18,486 bases of DNA from a virus (lineage: Duplodnaviria; Heunggongvirae; Uroviricota; Caudoviricetes), in the IMG/VR virus record IMGVR_UViG_2681813135_000006; one strand, written 5' to 3'. The notes under the pieces were generated by a model. That model searched no databases, was not told where the DNA came from, and saw nothing but the letters and a program-made list of their open reading frames with translations. This document shows, in pieces, positions 1,716 through 18,486 of this stretch (within the stretch, counting starts at the first letter, position 1; every line of letters begins with the position of its first letter). Both the position numbers and the translations under genes were made by a program.

Positions 1716-2546
1716 TTATCGAGTTATTGCTCGCAGTTGCGATTCGGCCCACGCTTCTTCCATGTCGAATTTGGTGATCAGCCGGTCGTAAAACGGCTTC
1801 ACTGACTTTTTCCAGGTGTCCAGAGTAATGGCGTCGGTAATAAGGCAAACAGCCGCATATGCCTCAGTCGAGGGGATCCGCTCATACCCGCGCCCGCCGC
1901 AGCGCTTGCAGTCGGCCATCACCGGCGCGCCCTGCTTTTCTGTCAGCGTCTTGCTGACAGCTTTTCCGCGCCCCTGGCAGTCATTACATGCGCAGCTGAC
2001 GACCTTCTTCCCTTTGCAGGCCGAGCACAGCACCCGGGCCACCTCTTTCACCTCACGCCGATTCTGATGCTGCGAAGGGATAACCTTCAGCCCCCATTTT
2101 TTTGATTTTTGAATGATGTCTTTTGCGCAGCCAGAGATGCTGGTTTTCATACTAAAAACGTCAGCCTCAATGAACCCCTGCCCTGCGCAACATTCGCACC
2201 TCTTGACGCTGGCGGCGCTGCGGGAATAGTCCTCAAAAGCGAAGGTAGCAAGCTGGCGCATCACCAGCGGTTTAACCCCAGCGTCCAGTTTGCGCAGGGC
2301 AGCCACGCTATCGCATTTTGTCAGCGCATACTGGGCCAGCAGCTCGATCGCTCTCTCCCGATCGTTGTTGCTGATGCCCATCTTTCCGAGAAAGGCACTG
2401 TAGCCCATGGCGGCGCGTTCCTGGGTCATGCCCATGGCTGCCATGATGTCCGTTCCGGTCAGCGAGTCGGAGGCCGTAGCGCGCGGAGAGTCGCTAATCA
2501 GCGTCGATTTGGCGAAGTGGTATTTCACGGTGTTTTCGAGGTTCAT
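1716..2546 (-). CDS. Putative late-gene antiterminator Q (Q-like, with two CxxCxGxG zinc-finger-like motifs)
   Basis: 276-aa ORF; ATG at 2546 with SD AGGAG 7 nt upstream. Lies between rusA/ylcG-like and the lysis cassette, the canonical Q position. Motifs CNDCQGRGK and CKRCGGRGY. Family assignment is by position and recalled similarity to prophage antiterminators. Confidence 0.6.
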   Translation of the reverse strand: MNLENTVKYHFAKSTLISDSPRATASDSLTGTDIMAAMGMTQERAAMGYSAFLGKMGISNNDRERAIELLAQYALTKCDSVAALRKLDAGVKPLVMRQLATFAFEDYSRSAASVKRCECCAGQGFIEADVFSMKTSISGCAKDIIQKSKKWGLKVIPSQHQNRREVKEVARVLCSACKGKKVVSCACNDCQGRGKAVSKTLTEKQGAPVMADCKRCGGRGYERIPSTEAYAAVCLITDAITLDTWKKSVKPFYDRLITKFDMEEAWAESQLRAITR

Positions 2547-4789: not shown

Positions 4790-4809
4790 TACTGTGTTTT
4801 TATACAGTA
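4790..4809. promoter_or_regulatory. LexA (SOS) box, TACTGTGTTTTTATACAGTA, upstream of the dinI-like gene
   Basis: CTGT-N8-ACAG palindrome matching the E. coli consensus TACTGT(AT)4ACAGTA at 16 of 20 positions; 19 nt upstream of the dinI-like ATG and overlapping a plausible -10 region. Confidence 0.75.
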
Positions 4810-4871
4810 TACCTATGCGCGGAAATGATCAACGTTTTAAGAGCACAAATTGTTAATTTTCTGTCAGTTGT

Positions 4872-4899
4872 AAAAAAAGAAAACCCGCCGTAGCGGGTT
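4872..4899 (-). terminator. Rho-independent terminator on the minus strand
   Basis: Minus-strand RNA AACCCGC-UACG-GCGGGUU (perfect 7-bp stem) followed by UUCUUUUUUUU. Confidence 0.7.
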
Positions 4900-5262
4900 G
4901 AATTAGCAGTGTTATATTAAGCGGCAATTTCTTTCTGCCGGCACAATCCCGAGAGATTCGCCCTCTGTATCGCATCATCAATGAGCACCTGTATGACCAT
5001 GAGGCAAAGCGTTATCCAACTTGCATTCATCTTTTTCAATCAGCAAAGGAGTGGTTAGTGCTGTGAGTGGGCTTTGTTCACTTCATGGTAGATAAATCAG
5101 CTATGGATAAGTGATAAGAGGTGAAATCAATCCGAATTAACAACCTGAAGCACATTAATCGGAACACAGATATTAAAATCCTAAAGTCTAGTAACAAATA
5201 GCCGATATGAGATATTGCTTATCAGTTTAAAAATCATCTATTGAAAAAATGGGGGGGAGGCG

Positions 5263-5826
5263 TTGAAGCGAGTAGAGCGCGATTTTATCTGTCTGTTTAA
5301 TTGTGTGTGGTATCAAGATTTCCCTGTGTTCAAAGGTGAATATATCAACCGTTCCAACTGGACCATTCATGTTGGCCTGGTCATGCGCGAGTGTGCAAAG
5401 TTAATGGGCGCAAGAACATTTTTTGAACAAGGCGGGCGTACCGATGCGGTCCTACAATATCCAGACAATCAAATTTTAACCTATGTTGAGTGGGAGTATA
5501 ATCAGGCAGACAGAGATAGCGTTAACGAGTTAGACAAACTGCTTGAAAAAAACGACAAGTGCTATTTCTCCACATTCATCTCATATTGTCAGCATGAAAA
5601 CATCAATATTGTTATTGAAAAAGCAAGTAGAATATGGAGTGAAGCAAGCAGGCCTTTGATTTTTTTTCTTATCACCTATGAGCCTCAAACGAAAAAACGC
5701 CGCCATTTTTTAGAACTCAGAACTTATTTTTTCTCAAACGGCAAAAGAAAACTAGTTCGCAAACAACCTGCGCTTCCATGGGATATTGAGCAACGAAAAT
5801 ACAATGTCGAAGAAGATGCAGGATAG
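5263..5826 (+). CDS. Hypothetical 187-aa protein encoded in an AT-rich island on the opposite strand to the flanking phage operon (candidate moron/accessory gene)
   Basis: TTG start at 5263 immediately after a very strong SD (GGGGGGGAGG at 5251-5260). Visibly AT-rich coding sequence. No TM segment or family recognised. Confidence 0.6.
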   Translation: MKRVERDFICLFNCVWYQDFPVFKGEYINRSNWTIHVGLVMRECAKLMGARTFFEQGGRTDAVLQYPDNQILTYVEWEYNQADRDSVNELDKLLEKNDKCYFSTFISYCQHENINIVIEKASRIWSEASRPLIFFLITYEPQTKKRRHFLELRTYFFSNGKRKLVRKQPALPWDIEQRKYNVEEDAG

Positions 5827-6049
5827 AAGAGACATAAGGTTTTCACGACAGTCTCGTTCCGAGCCCTAACTAAAATATTCTGTTCGGAGCAACCAAATAG
5901 CTCTGGCTTTGCTGTGACCATGTTCGCGGTACCAACGCCTCTCTAGGTCCGCTTCTCGCTCATGGTGGACCAAAATCAAATCTAAAATGACGTGGCTAAG
6001 CGGGAGTACATAGTGAATGACAGGATGCTCCGGGCAGCACCATACTAAT

Positions 6050-6247
6050 TCAGTTCCCGTCAGAGGTAGGCGTTGCTTCATGATGGGATGAGCGCTCCCT
6101 CCAGACAATCCATGCGACAGCCGCCTCCCATGATATATATCCATTACCGCCATTTTTCGCTCTGCGGAGATTAACTGCATCACCAAACCTTTCAATGATG
6201 AATTTTTCAAATTCTATGCGTTTTTCTTCGTCGATTGTTGAATCCAT
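6050..6247 (-). CDS. Hypothetical small acidic protein (65 aa); may be the 5' part of a frameshifted gene continuing in another frame to 5866
   Basis: ATG at 6247 preceded by GGGGAAGG. The ORF-track entry 5866..6210 overlaps it in a second frame. Confidence 0.35.
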   Translation of the reverse strand: MDSTIDEEKRIEFEKFIIERFGDAVNLRRAKNGGNGYISWEAAVAWIVWRERSSHHEATPTSDGN

Positions 6248-6464
6248 ACCTTCCCCAGAAGAGTCCTACGAATCGCTCTTATTGCATAAAAAATAGCATA
6301 TACAATAGAGAGTGAAAAACCGACGTAGCGGGTTAACTTTATGTTACTCATGAGTCTTGTCTCGCTGCGACTTAAAAGCGGAACATTCTCGCGCAAGTTG
6401 CGTTGCTAAAGCTACGGGGTTGAATGGCTCTCCATGCCCATTTAAGAAGGCATGCGGTGTGTAG

Positions 6465-6493
6465 TTGAACGTTATTTAAAACACAGATAGAAT
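6465..6493 (+). promoter_or_regulatory. Putative sigma70 promoter for the secreted-protein gene
   Basis: -35 TTGAAC (6465-6470), 17-bp spacer, -10 TAGAAT (6488-6493), about 30 nt upstream of the ATG at 6527. Confidence 0.35.
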
Positions 6494-6526
6494 CAAGAAA
6501 AATCCTAAATAAATGGAATATTGTTT

Positions 6527-6907
6527 ATGGCTAAGAAAATCGCATTACTGGGCTTTTCTGCTCTTTTTGTTGCAAGTGTTGCTTTTGCTGAAACGACAAG
6601 TAACTGGGTTGAGGTTACTACAGCTGATGATGGCATTTTTTCAGCAAAAAAAGGCACATTTAGAAATGTAAAAGGTGATTCATCTGCCTTGTTCATGTAT
6701 CAAACAAAAAATAAAAAAGTAGAGTACTACAAAGTTAGTATTAAAGATGCCGACTGTGATAGTGGATATGGGGAGATAAGATTCTTCTATATGGATGGGA
6801 AATTAGCTTTCAAAGGTGATTATGTTGCTGATGGGAACAGTGTTGGCGCAGGTATTGGTGATTTTATGTGTGGAGTCAGAATTGGACTTAACACACAAAA
6901 AAGTTAA
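6527..6907 (+). CDS. Secreted/periplasmic protein of unknown function (126 aa, Sec signal peptide, 2 Cys)
   Basis: From ATG 6527: MAKKIALLGFSALFVASVAFA followed by ETT, a typical signal peptide with an AXA cleavage motif. Mature part is Gly/Asp/Lys-rich with two Cys. AT-rich; the TTG at 6521 in the ORF track is probably not the start. Confidence 0.7.
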   Translation: MAKKIALLGFSALFVASVAFAETTSNWVEVTTADDGIFSAKKGTFRNVKGDSSALFMYQTKNKKVEYYKVSIKDADCDSGYGEIRFFYMDGKLAFKGDYVADGNSVGAGIGDFMCGVRIGLNTQKS

Positions 6908-7321
6908 ATGAGGGGCATTTGTTAAAAAACAATAGCCCCACATTAGATCAATATTGGCTCCGGCATTTCTGGATAAAAGCTTCTATGCTACGGCGCTCAT
7001 AGCGAACAATCTTAGCGCTGAACTTTACACGGGGCCAATGTAGACCGGTGTCGGTGTTCTGTATTCCATTTACATAATGTTTTTTGCGTAATTCCCAGCT
7101 TCTGGCATACCTCGCCCGGAGTGAGGAGATCATCAGGTTGCTCAGTCATGTTATGCCTCGCTGTTATCTGGGGTGATGATTAGCAGCTTCCAGATGGCTG
7201 AGACATACATAGCCTGATGTTTCGCATCGACTAGGGCATTATGCATGTCACCTTCAAACGGCATGTCCCGAGTTCTCCCTTTTCGCCGCTTTCGCGTCGC
7301 ATATTCTCCAAACGGTATTTA

Positions 7322-8282: not shown

Positions 8283-8617
8283 GCTGGCATCCTCCCCACG
8301 ATATCTATAACCCGACGCATAACCGCACTTCCCCGAAAATCTGCTGGTAACTCAATCAGAGGCTTACTCGAACCGTATGAGAATCGTTGGAGATCGAAAT
8401 CAATTACAGCCTTTGGGTCCCTGAACAAATCTAGACGACCGTAACGAATGAGTTCGCCGCGTTCGGCTGCTACGCGGAAATACTTCTCAGCAGTCTGACG
8501 ATGCAGCGACAACATCTGTGATGCCTCGCTAACGGTTAAGCGTCCACGGATTTTCACCTCTTCGATGATCACCCGGATAAGTGCCGCCTGCTCTTCTGGT
8601 GTATTTGGTCTTGGCAT
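8279..8617 (-). CDS. Hypothetical HTH-containing protein immediately downstream of the O-like gene
   Basis: ATG at 8617, 2 nt after the O-like TAA, with GGGGG SD; helix-turn-helix-like stretch LTVSEASQMLSLHRQTAEKYFRVAAERGELIRYGR. Confidence 0.6.
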   Translation of the reverse strand: MPRPNTPEEQAALIRVIIEEVKIRGRLTVSEASQMLSLHRQTAEKYFRVAAERGELIRYGRLDLFRDPKAVIDFDLQRFSYGSSKPLIELPADFRGSAVMRRVIDIVGRMPA

Positions 8618-8619
8618 GC

Positions 8620-9531
8620 TTACCCCCTGAATCCGGGTGGGATTGTTTTGTCTGGCTCAGAAATGCGGTTCACATCCCTGCCCGTTTTGCGAGCGTTGAG
8701 AGCGAACTTCGGTTTAAACAGTCCCTGGTACCCGTTGGCGATACTGGTGTTGATCACATCAACGGGGTCATGCCCAGCGTCCAGGCAAGCCTTGAGCAAC
8801 TTGAATGCTTTGGTGACCGTCATTTCGGTCTTGATGGCTTTGCCAGACTGTTGGCGGTAGGCCACCCACTCACTCCAGGACACAGAATCAAGCCACTCAG
8901 GAACGGGAATCGTCAGCGGGTCAAACTTACCCTTCCCCTTTGGGGGATTAGAGGGGGTTAGATCTGTATTTATATTTGTATTTGGAAGAATGTCTTTGGT
9001 GTTCCCTGTTTTCAGGGATACCTCTCCCTGTTTTTGGGGATGGTTATCCCCGTTTTCAGGGATGATTGAAGGGGTAAAATTGCTATCCCTGAATTCAGGG
9101 ATGGTAATAACCCATGTGACAACTTCAGCAGCAGGAAACACCGCTGGACACTTCATGCAATTTGGCTTGGTATACGCCCATTTATCCAGGCTGGTATTAA
9201 TCCCTATGTATCTGGTTTGCCCAATGCGGCGCAGGATGATGATGTTCCGATAGGCAAGGCTCAACACGGCTTCAGAGACGTGTTTCACCTTCAGCGTCGT
9301 TTTATCTGCAATGAGGCTATTGGCGATGCGGTCAGAACTCTTAGACCAGCCATAGGTCAGACGAACGATAGCATTCAGCACCCGGAACTCGCGCCCGGAT
9401 AGTTCGACGATACACAGGGCATCCTGAATCTGGTTGGCCAGGCGCAAATAGCCTTTCTCCAGTTCAGCCATGCTGCTCTCCTGTTTCCCCTGCTGTGTGG
9501 GGAATTTGAATATTTCAGCGGTATTTGACAT
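8620..9531 (-). CDS. Lambda O-like replication initiator; start re-called to ATG at 9531
   Basis: N-terminus MSNTAEIFKFPTQQ...EKGYLRLAN...REFRVLNAIVRLTYGWSKSSDRIANS parallels lambda O (MTNTAKILNF...DGYARLSN...RQFKVLLAILRKTYGWNKPMDRITDS) by recall. Iterons and an AT-rich tract lie inside the gene. SD GGAGAA 5 nt upstream of the ATG. Confidence 0.85.
   Translation of the reverse strand: MSNTAEIFKFPTQQGKQESSMAELEKGYLRLANQIQDALCIVELSGREFRVLNAIVRLTYGWSKSSDRIANSLIADKTTLKVKHVSEAVLSLAYRNIIILRRIGQTRYIGINTSLDKWAYTKPNCMKCPAVFPAAEVVTWVITIPEFRDSNFTPSIIPENGDNHPQKQGEVSLKTGNTKDILPNTNINTDLTPSNPPKGKGKFDPLTIPVPEWLDSVSWSEWVAYRQQSGKAIKTEMTVTKAFKLLKACLDAGHDPVDVINTSIANGYQGLFKPKFALNARKTGRDVNRISEPDKTIPPGFRG
9003..9105. 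repeat. Replication origin iterons: four roughly 18-19 bp palindromic repeats (TCCCTG...CAGGGAT type) inside the O-like gene, with an AT-rich tract at about 8961-8990
   Basis: tccctgttttcagggata (9003), tccctgtttttggggatgg (9025), tccccgttttcagggatga (9047), tccctgaattcagggatgg (9087). Spacing is 22, 22 and 40 bp. Resembles lambda ori iterons, with the AT-rich region downstream in the direction of O transcription. Confidence 0.7.
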
Positions 9532-9615
9532 ACTGTTCTCCGCAATTACGCACAGTTTTTGCACCTGAAAGCCGTTGGTGTTCGAGCACCGCGGCTTTCG
9601 CCATTTCTGAGCCCG

Positions 9616-17098: not shown

Positions 17099-17296
17099 AT
17101 GGATGATATTTTGGTAACGTCAGACCTGACCAGTCGCTACAAAATTTCACGCAAAACCCTTTGGTCATGGCAAAGTGCAGACACAATGCCTCGGGGCTTC
17201 GTATGCCCGTTCCCACCCCCTGACTGGCCCGGCAACCCTAACCGCTGGCGCTCTGAGTCAATCAAAGAGTGGGAGGATAAAAAGAAGATAAATTAA
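17099..17296 (+). CDS. AlpA-family small DNA-binding protein (excisionase/regulator-like), about 65 aa
   Basis: From ATG 17099 (SD GGAGAG): [34 protein letters not shown]...[13 protein letters not shown] resembles AlpA-type HTH proteins by recall. The TTG at 17054 in the ORF track is probably not the start. Confidence 0.65.
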
Positions 17297-18486
17297 CTGA
17301 AGGGCTCTCCGATGATCTCTTCAAGATGGCTCTGCCAAACGCGGAGCCAGTGTTTCTGATCATCGATATAGTCATGAAGGTTGTAATGCGCCATAACCCC
17401 CACCATCTGATGCCCGAGCAGCTTTTCAATTACGTGCGGCGGGCAACCTAACTCAGAGAGATTTGTGGCTATCGTCCGCCTCATATCATGAAGCGACCAC
17501 TCTGCCATACCTGTTCCATTCCAAATAGAACGGGCGTAATTGGATGCCACAGGTGAATGAACGGGCGAATCTTTGATCCCGCCATCAATTTTACGTTGTG
17601 AAGTCACCAGGTGATTGGTGTTTATTTTCTTGAGGTGATTTCTGACCAGGTTAACGGCGGCGTCTGAGAGTCCCCTTCTAATATGTACCCGAGTTTTATA
17701 ACTGCCCGCAGGCACGACCCACTCATTATCATCCAATCGAAACCATGATCTCTCACTAAGTCGAATCTCAGCCGTACGGCATCCGGTAAGCATAATAAAT
17801 TTCACCAGGAAAACGGACTCTATCGACATATGGCTTTTCAACCACTGATAGATTTTGCGCAGATCGTCATCGTCCATCCTGCGAGTTCTCTTTTTAGGCT
17901 TTTGCCCGACATCAGATGGCAGTAATCCCTCGAGTGGGTTTGAGGCGATCACACTTCTGTTAACGCAGAACCTAAAGGCCCGTTTGCACAGCGAAAGCAT
18001 GTAATGAGCCATCACCCTGCTTTCTATAGAATCGAAGACGTTGATCCAGTGCATTTTCGCTGTGTTATCGACTTTGACATTCTTCATCGGTTCGGCGATA
18101 TGTTTCTCAAACACCTGGCGATAGTAATCGACTTTAACTAGCCCGTTAGCGATACAGTGCCTTTCAATCCAGTAATTGAACGCTTCGGCAACGGACATCG
18201 CTTCCTGTCGGGTCTGCTTATCCAGCTTCACCTGCTCTCGCGGATCCAGTCCCTCAGTTAACCAGTTTCTGAATTGTTGGCGACGCTCTCTTGCCTGGGT
18301 GATACTCATTGCAGGATAATCACCAACATTGAGTTTTACCGCTTTACCGGCCCAGCGATACCGATAGAAAAATGATATTTTTCCGGCCTGGCTGATTCTG
18401 GCGTTGAGCCCGTGCGAATCAGAAATAATCTCGATATCATCTCTTTTCTTGCCGAGCGCCTTCCTGAGCTTTGTGTCGGTGATCAT
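17293..18486 (-). CDS. int: Tyrosine site-specific integrase (P4/CP4-57-like), 397 aa; start codon at the window edge
   Basis: ATG at 18486-18484. Integrase-like N-terminal region and a C-terminal catalytic region containing HDMRRT...LLGHQ...AHYNLHDY (R/H/Y catalytic residues of tyrosine recombinases). Confidence 0.9.

Follow-up and report, generated by a model that had tools for sequence, protein, structure and literature searches.

A mobile promoter-to-hairpin cassette of a lambdoid Escherichia coli prophage encodes a putative exported protein with a predicted Protein E/PseM-type fold

Here we describe an 18,486-nucleotide (nt) stretch of DNA from IMG/VR virus record IMGVR_UViG_2681813135_000006 (Caudoviricetes), referred to below as the window, which is a lambdoid Escherichia coli prophage of the phi80/mEp237 type and which carries, within an AT-rich accessory island, a short cassette composed of a promoter-like sequence, an open reading frame (ORF) of 126 amino acids (aa), and a hairpin. 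The prophage genes that frame the island and the elements of the cassette are summarized in Table 1. GC content is 0.37-0.41 in the island versus 0.5-0.6 in its flanks, and similarity of the window to phage mEp237 ends at position 4938. Values for the ORF, the island (4800-7100), and the whole window are 0.365, 0.407, and 0.508, respectively, and the AT-rich composition noted in an earlier reading of this DNA (hereafter the original prediction) is thereby borne out (36.5% GC versus 50.8% for the window). That reading had singled out positions 6465-6907, which coincide almost exactly with the conserved cassette defined here, as a possible moron encoding an exported, perhaps periplasmic, protein. 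The 126-aa gene and the early-right genes around it lie on opposite strands, and among 5,426 complete E. coli genomes only 3 contain the 3-kb stretch that holds it, with identities of 99.8-99.9%. A role as part of the lysis cassette was considered and rejected, given the location of the gene on the opposite strand at approximately 4 kb from Q, and given that the lysis genes lie beyond Q, outside the window.

The product is annotated in E. coli ES7 as hypothetical protein WP_053271636.1. While an alternative in-frame start codon (TTG 6521) would yield a protein of 128 aa, ATG 6527 is invariant in all eight aligned loci and is for this reason preferred as the start; a block (AAATGGAA) at the weak Shine-Dalgarno-like GGA is kept in most of the same loci. 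An antisense ORF inside the gene (6505-6696 (-), 63 aa) appears "conserved" in seven loci as a mere shadow of the conserved coding sequence.

The leader, MAKKIALLGFSALFVASVAFA, which is followed by ETTSNW, starts with MAKK and combines two Lys residues, a 17-residue hydrophobic core, and A-F-A at positions -3 to -1. As it contains no Cys, it is of the signal peptidase I type and not that of a lipoprotein; the lipoprotein reading was rejected because a lipobox is absent. Residue A21 and the context VAFAE are kept in 33 close homologues, and in 119 of the 128 members of the wider family analysed below the first 45 residues include a hydrophobic run of 10 residues or more. A lipobox-like motif is present in approximately 16 of those 128, all single-domain distant relatives, indicating that the wider family includes lipoprotein forms. 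The AlphaFold model assigns low confidence to residues 1-23, and its first strand begins at residue 27. These characters strongly support a leader equipped with every feature of a signal peptidase I substrate, and export with cleavage between A21 and E22 would follow. The Sec leader with an AFA motif and the two Cys residues of the mature part (C77 and C115), both of which the original prediction had pointed out, are therefore present.

Table 1. Features of the window, in window coordinates, with the prophage framework given first and the cassette elements in order of position. Strand is given as + or -; a full stop marks features without an assigned strand.
Feature	Position	Strand	Remarks
Integrase	17293-18486	-	
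recT and recE	leftward of integrase	+	
Immunity region	near 10.2-10.9 kb		
Replication protein	8620-9564	-	
nin-type genes	between replication protein and Q		
Q	1716-2546	-	
AT-rich accessory island	4939-7150	.	holds the cassette; between DinI/nin genes and replication-side genes
-35-like hexamer TTGAAC	6465-6470	+	promoter scan; left edge of the conserved cassette
-10-like hexamer TAGAAT	6488-6493	+	promoter scan; 17-nt spacer from -35
Weak Shine-Dalgarno-like GGA	6515-6517	+	9 nt before ATG; read from the sequence
Coding sequence	6527-6907	+	ATG 6527, TAA 6905-6907; 126 aa plus stop
Predicted signal peptide, Sec (signal peptidase I type)	6527-6589	+	residues 1-21, cleavage between AFA and E; from sequence features, conservation, and the low-confidence N-terminus of the model
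Mature domain	6590-6904	+	105 aa, ~11.5 kDa, pI ~6.5; predicted antiparallel beta-sheet plus C-terminal helix 106-125, Protein E/PseM-like fold
Cys77 codon	6755-6757	+	within the DC-x2-G-x-G motif after strand 65-73; invariant in 128 family members
Cys115 codon	6869-6871	+	within the C-terminal helix; presumed disulfide partner of Cys77; invariant in 128 members
G+C-rich hairpin (GGGGC...GCCCC)	6912-6939	.	directly after the stop codon; right edge of the cassette

Comparison with other loci delimits the cassette on both sides. BLASTN similarity to nine loci in unrelated contexts begins at 6464/6465, where the -35 hexamer has its first base, and stops between 6905 and 6940, that is, at the stop codon or the hairpin. 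The -35/-10 pair spanning 6465-6493, on which the original prediction had based its promoter, recurs in seven of eight aligned loci: GTTGAACGTT is kept at the -35 position, upstream of which the DNA is unrelated, and the -10 region is kept as GATAGAAT, GATAGACT, or GATAAAAT; the leader region is likewise conserved in seven of the eight loci. It is this retention next to unrelated upstream DNA that makes the site meaningful, and transcription would start near position 6500. The hairpin has a predicted folding energy of -17 kcal/mol (z -5.2 on the + strand and -4.7 on the - strand), and at the other loci a GGGG-rich hairpin occupies the same position with different stem sequences. Within window 6903-6948, an A-tract stands before the hairpin, and on the - strand the hairpin is followed by UAACUUUUUUG, a U-run. 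The hairpin is a candidate terminator, for which a direction can be suggested: it may mainly stop leftward transcription from the phage early-right genes, shielding the cassette from antisense read-through. An Rfam scan of the window revealed no known RNA. As loci with nothing else in common share these edges at the -35 hexamer and the hairpin, there is strong support for regarding 6464-6940 as a promoter-ORF-hairpin cassette that is mobile and under purifying selection, with textbook moron anatomy.

The close family comprises 38 members, all from Enterobacteriaceae (Citrobacter, Kluyvera, Klebsiella, Raoultella, Enterobacter, and E. coli) and each of them labelled hypothetical; none of the homologues has a defined function. 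Full ORF length is kept in more than 30 homologues with identities of 54-98%, and pairwise ratios of nonsynonymous to synonymous substitution (dN/dS) of 0.05-0.24, at dS of 0.1-1.1, reveal purifying selection. The homologues occupy at least six unrelated mobile-element contexts, and the gene alone is common to the window and the 10 loci compared with it; no neighbour is conserved, and a conserved partner gene (immunity, toxin, or receptor) sought among those 10 loci was not found. In Kluyvera, the homologue is found at the end of a prophage, immediately inside a tyrosine integrase; in Enterobacter, Citrobacter, and E. coli, homologues are located at the proBA-side border of elements; in K. aerogenes, they adjoin serine recombinases at the ends of small elements encoding a lambda-E-type capsid protein; in K. 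variicola, they likewise adjoin serine recombinases; and in Raoultella, the homologue is near a P4-like primase. Homologues are also carried by non-mobilizable E. coli plasmids of 108-133 kb, one of which, upon inspection, proved to be IncFIB and phage-plasmid-like, with Rha, an S24 peptidase, and a phage methylase. A 30%-identical relative is found on 5.5-kb Klebsiella plasmids with an inovirus-type Gp2 replication protein, and among distant metagenomic relatives one is beside a YqaJ exonuclease gene and another beside a resolvase gene. A tblastn search of 50,697 phage records gave no match, and the gene is also absent from mEp237. Together with the element contexts, this absence leads us to regard the gene as cargo of integrated and plasmid elements that stands outside any sequenced phage core. 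The moron reading put forward in the original prediction is well supported by the edges at the -35 hexamer and the hairpin, by the absence of the gene from mEp237 and the phage records, and by its integrase-proximal or end positions in unrelated elements.

Several further observations concern the surroundings of the homologues. In 5 of the 10 loci (Enterobacter, Citrobacter, and K. aerogenes), a gene for a YecR-like lipoprotein (PF13992, 106 aa) is located 50-130 nt upstream on the same strand (L004, 7542-7862; L005, 7532-7861; L009-L011, 7628-7948 (+)) and forms with the homologue a two-gene unit of exported proteins; this gene is absent from the window. At loci L009-L011 and L015-L018, homologues stand at the very end of small elements beside host genes such as proBA. 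Besides a lambda-E-type major capsid protein (PF03864), these elements encode a resolvase or integrase and have a few small genes, and, with 8 kb visible on each side, they look like small capsid-encoding satellite-type elements and not full prophages. The 30%-identical member on a 5.6-kb K. pneumoniae plasmid (NZ_LR890297.1; locus L007, 3049-3453 (+)) keeps both Cys residues and is one of six genes, with a helix-turn-helix gene directly upstream.

Pfam, PHROG, PADLOC, and NCBIfam scans of the 126-aa protein gave no match (Pfam and PADLOC at E <= 1), and neither phmmer nor a profile of 128 family sequences found a relevant match among PDB sequences at E <= 10. When 1.84 billion cluster representatives were searched exhaustively with HMMER at a cut-off of E <= 1e-3, 194 relatives were identified, most of which are 115-175 aa long and begin with an N-terminal hydrophobic leader. 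Tandem two-domain forms of approximately 230-275 aa, in which each domain has its own Cys pair, account for about 19 of the 150 relatives listed (P0043, P0046, P0051, P0053, P0054, and P0059 among them). A profile word-index search with the 128-sequence alignment yielded just six additional proteins, each of them distant and located on a short contig. In that alignment, C77, G82, and C115 are the only invariant residues; W27 is conserved in 98% and G103 in 92% of sequences, D76 and D98 in only 72-77%, and an invariant acidic or other catalytic residue is absent. The motifs K-x-G-S/T-F, D-C-x2-G-x-G, and D-Y/F-V-x2-G-x-S-V-x3-I-A-D-x2-C recur, and all longer members that were inspected have a Cys-Cys spacing of 38. 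When the 128 members were compared with Pfam, no family was matched except for one chance match to CNNM. To judge from these searches, the family is undescribed in the Pfam, PHROGs, PADLOC, and NCBIfam libraries.

Structure prediction followed by a Foldseek search, as suggested in the original prediction, gave a confident model of the mature domain. The AlphaFold2 model, built with 33 homologues, has a predicted local distance difference test (pLDDT) score of >90 across the mature domain, with strands at 27-33, 36-41, 46-48, 51-60, 65-73, 81-87, and 93-100, a short turn that holds C77, and a C-terminal helix (106-125) that holds C115. Foldseek against the PDB was uninformative. Against viral predicted structures, the top two matches were phage proteins named "surface-adhesin protein E" and "surface-adhesin protein E-like domain-containing protein" (E ~1e-3, probability 1.00, template modelling (TM) score ~0.5). 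The model resembles Protein E (PE) of Haemophilus influenzae (Pfam PF16747, Adhesin_E; PDB 3ZH5 and 6GUT) and TdeM (PDB 9M3L), the latter of which is taken to be the Pseudomonas aeruginosa protein PseM on the basis of the title of the PDB entry and because both are described as endolytic muramidases. A C77-C115 disulfide is probable given the invariance of both residues and the presence of the same bond in PE and PseM, and its formation would depend on DsbA. A PE/PseM-type fold with an invariant Cys pair is strongly supported by the model. Taken together, the leader features, the family-wide occurrence of a leader and Cys pair, and the predicted likeness to two exported disulfide proteins agree with the exported or periplasmic product envisaged in the original prediction.

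PE consists of a six-stranded antiparallel sheet and a C-terminal helix, with a C99-C148 disulfide tying the helix to the end of beta4 (PMC6652776). The model of the 126-aa protein likewise has an antiparallel sheet with a C-terminal helix packed on top, and it places C77 just after strand 65-73 and C115 in helix 106-125, so that a bond between the two would be the counterpart of the PE helix-beta4 bond. At the sequence level, by contrast, PF16747 was matched neither by the protein (E <= 1) nor by the 128 relatives (E <= 0.01), whereas PE itself scores 62.7 bits. An hhalign comparison with PE alone was not significant, and one between the 128-sequence family and 22 PE-family sequences, an alignment that is shallow and limited to Pasteurellaceae, gave a probability of 35.6% over 20 columns, which correspond to the Cys-bearing helix with the cysteines in register; with so shallow an alignment the negative is not a strong one. 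PE is moreover a lipoprotein, whereas the 126-aa protein has no lipobox.

PseM (PA0989) has 186 aa, is provided with a Sec signal peptide, and acts in the periplasm; a C87-C134 disulfide ties a strand end to helix alpha3, and an extra strand (beta8) and C-terminal helices alpha5/alpha6 form a homodimer and a proposed substrate crevice (PMC12494544). It is reported to be an enzyme and toxin (an endolytic muramidase) with unresolved catalytic residues, toxic when exported, dependent on type VI secretion (T6SS), and encoded beside an immunity gene, PA0990 (Nudix-type) (PMC12494544). Compared with this published description, the predicted model shares the strand order, the beta-sheet core, and the disulfide-tethered helix, and the conserved signal-peptide-like leader would be the counterpart of the PseM signal peptide. 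The 126-aa protein, however, ends at residue 126 after helix 106-125 and so lacks beta8 and alpha5/alpha6; its Cys spacing is 38 compared with 47 in PseM; and no conserved neighbour at the 10 loci takes the place of PA0990. PE and PseM both form head-to-tail dimers. While its authors reported no structural homologue of PseM (PMC12494544), the present comparison, insofar as it rests on predicted structure, indicates that PseM shares its core with Protein E-like proteins. A literature search on TdeM, PA0989, and the WP accession returned nothing beyond the PseM paper. The protein is not filed under PE or PseM because the link fails at the sequence level and because the PE lipobox and the PseM helices and immunity gene are absent; according to the model, it has the same fold and disulfide architecture, is a member of neither family, and is possibly a very distant relative. 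It is, at the level of predicted structure, a new, unnamed, mobile-element-borne variant of the PE/PseM structural type.

Other small genes surround the cassette within the island. At 5263-5826 (+) lies an ORF of 187 aa (hypothetical protein WP_170973743.1 in E. coli ES7) for which scans of Pfam, PHROG, PADLOC, and NCBIfam returned nothing; a leader is not obvious, the other fetched loci contain no homologue, and the ORF is possibly another independent moron. Two minus-strand ORFs of 61 and 65 aa flank the cassette at 6948-7133 (-) and 6050-6247 (-), respectively; PHROG 4745 "DNA binding protein" is matched weakly (E 0.003) by that of 61 aa, and phrog_660, function unknown, by that of 65 aa (E 6.7e-5). 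Three proteins encoded by window neighbours of the gene gave no Pfam or NCBIfam match. To the right of the cassette, at 7152-7271 (-), lies the remnant of a gene for an exoribonuclease (Rv2179c-like, 3'-5'). In a Kluyvera sichuanensis prophage (L003), an intact exoribonuclease gene of 239 aa (8615-9334 (-)) comes after the homologous cassette, and similarity between the window and this prophage spans 6377-7270, which suggests that the cassette arrived together with the exoribonuclease neighbour and that the latter was subsequently truncated.

Classical lambdoid morons, such as lambda bor and lom and phi80/N15 cor, are small, independently transcribed, and compositionally atypical genes between conserved phage modules, with an envelope-targeted product whose expression in the lysogen is presumed; of the three, Lom forms a beta-barrel, and Bor and Cor are lipoproteins of the outer membrane. 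The 126-aa protein resembles them in moron placement but differs in its signal peptidase I site and its fold, and no sequence relation to Bor, Lom, or Cor was found in the PHROG scan or the tblastn search of phage records. A functional analogy may be offered by Ivy, PliC/MliC, and T6SS immunity proteins of the Tsi/Tai type, which are small, Sec-exported, often disulfide-bonded, single-domain periplasmic binders.

Our confidence is high for the anatomy of the cassette and the export of its product. With respect to function, the reading we favour, at a probability of roughly 0.35-0.4, is that the protein is a non-enzymatic periplasmic binding module that protects the envelope of the lysogen. In this reading the phi80/mEp237-like prophage carries, at ~6464-6940, a near-consensus sigma-70 promoter, the 126-aa ORF, and the hairpin, and, because the cassette runs against the phage early-right operon, expression would be from its own promoter in the lysogen. 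The product would be exported by Sec, cleaved after AFA21, and folded in the periplasm, where it would reside, into a small curved antiparallel beta-sheet with its C-terminal helix pinned by the predicted Cys77-Cys115 disulfide. There it would bind, neutralise, or mask an envelope-directed agent or target, for which an incoming phage component and a periplasm-acting, peptidoglycan-targeting toxin are the candidates, and the lysogen would gain a benefit of the exclusion or immunity type. A binder is favoured because no polar residue is invariant across the family, because the gene always travels alone without a partner, because it sits at accessory positions (beside integrases, recombinases, and element borders), and because a constitutive-looking exported toxin without immunity would be expected to harm its own host. 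That no defence, enzyme, or toxin model was matched also agrees with this reading.

Several results weigh against such a protective binder. No characterised homologue has a protective role, and neither PADLOC-DB (E <= 1) nor PHROG gave a match. The dN/dS values lack the diversifying signal often seen in exclusion or immunity proteins, and the missing obvious catalytic residue is weak evidence given that those of PseM are themselves unresolved. With regard to expression, promoter-like sites between 5800 and 7600 number 2 versus 4.0 +/- 1.9 in shuffled sequences, so that the site is not exceptional taken alone, and the post-stop hairpin has no U-tract on the + (coding) strand and was not called as a terminator by the scan.

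The nearest characterised structures point in different directions, to an adhesin in the case of PE and to a periplasm-acting toxin in that of PseM, and each supplies a rival explanation. The shared core and tethered helix would suit a PseM-like, periplasm-acting, peptidoglycan-active protein (an endolytic muramidase or toxin) used by the prophage to remodel or attack the wall. We consider this unlikely, since the protein ends at the disulfide helix, without the beta8 and alpha5/alpha6 that in PseM form the dimer and proposed crevice, and has no invariant acidic residue and a different Cys spacing (38 versus 47); no PDB chain was matched at the sequence level, even with the 128-sequence profile; no immunity gene is adjacent and no neighbour conserved; and the argument from self-harm applies to a constitutive-looking wall toxin in particular. 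The names of the best viral Foldseek matches would instead suit a PE-like adhesin or host-interaction factor (for virulence or serum resistance) at the surface or in the medium, making the gene one of lysogenic conversion. This is very unlikely: with the lipobox absent there is no membrane anchor and no evident surface route, PF16747 is unmatched in the protein and its 128 relatives (PE 62.7 bits), the hhalign alignment reaches only 35.6% over 20 columns, and environmental and frog-farm isolates are among the hosts.

A protein that carries or binds a small hydrophobic or lipid ligand in the periplasm, of the Der p 7, JHBP, or LolA type and serving envelope homeostasis rather than conflict, is at least as improbable as an adhesin, given that such carriers score below PE and TdeM, that the domain is half their size, and that a stand-alone cassette found exclusively on mobile elements is unexpected for a housekeeping role. 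Finally, the absence of functional annotation everywhere and the AT-rich surroundings are what might be expected of a chance ORF or a decaying, functionless remnant, an explanation that is scarcely credible and in effect disproved by conservation: more than 30 homologues (54-98%) retain the full length, dN/dS is 0.05-0.24, the fold prediction is confident, and the promoter is conserved.

Should the protective-binder reading be wrong, the gene would be one further hypothetical moron. Even without a function, it represents a new family, whose signature consists of a signal peptide, W, K-x-G-S-F, D-C-x2-G-x-G, D-Y-V-x2-G-x-S-V, and C, the Cys spacing being fixed at 38 residues, and which connects at the level of the fold to PE, a vaccine antigen, and to PseM. 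If the protein does protect the lysogen, the gene would constitute a compact one-gene envelope defence or immunity module, unseen by current defence-finder and Pfam libraries, that spreads as a promoter-to-hairpin cassette among Enterobacteriaceae prophages, satellite-like elements, and plasmids. A bolder and unlikely version holds that this is an unrecognised, widely mobile family of Sec-exported PE/PseM-fold proteins, carried by phages, satellites, and plasmids and acting in the periplasm as one-gene orphan immunity or exclusion factors against periplasm-acting, wall-targeting toxins or incoming phage components; were it true, the PE adhesin, the PseM toxin, and the present family would form one superfamily of envelope-conflict modules.
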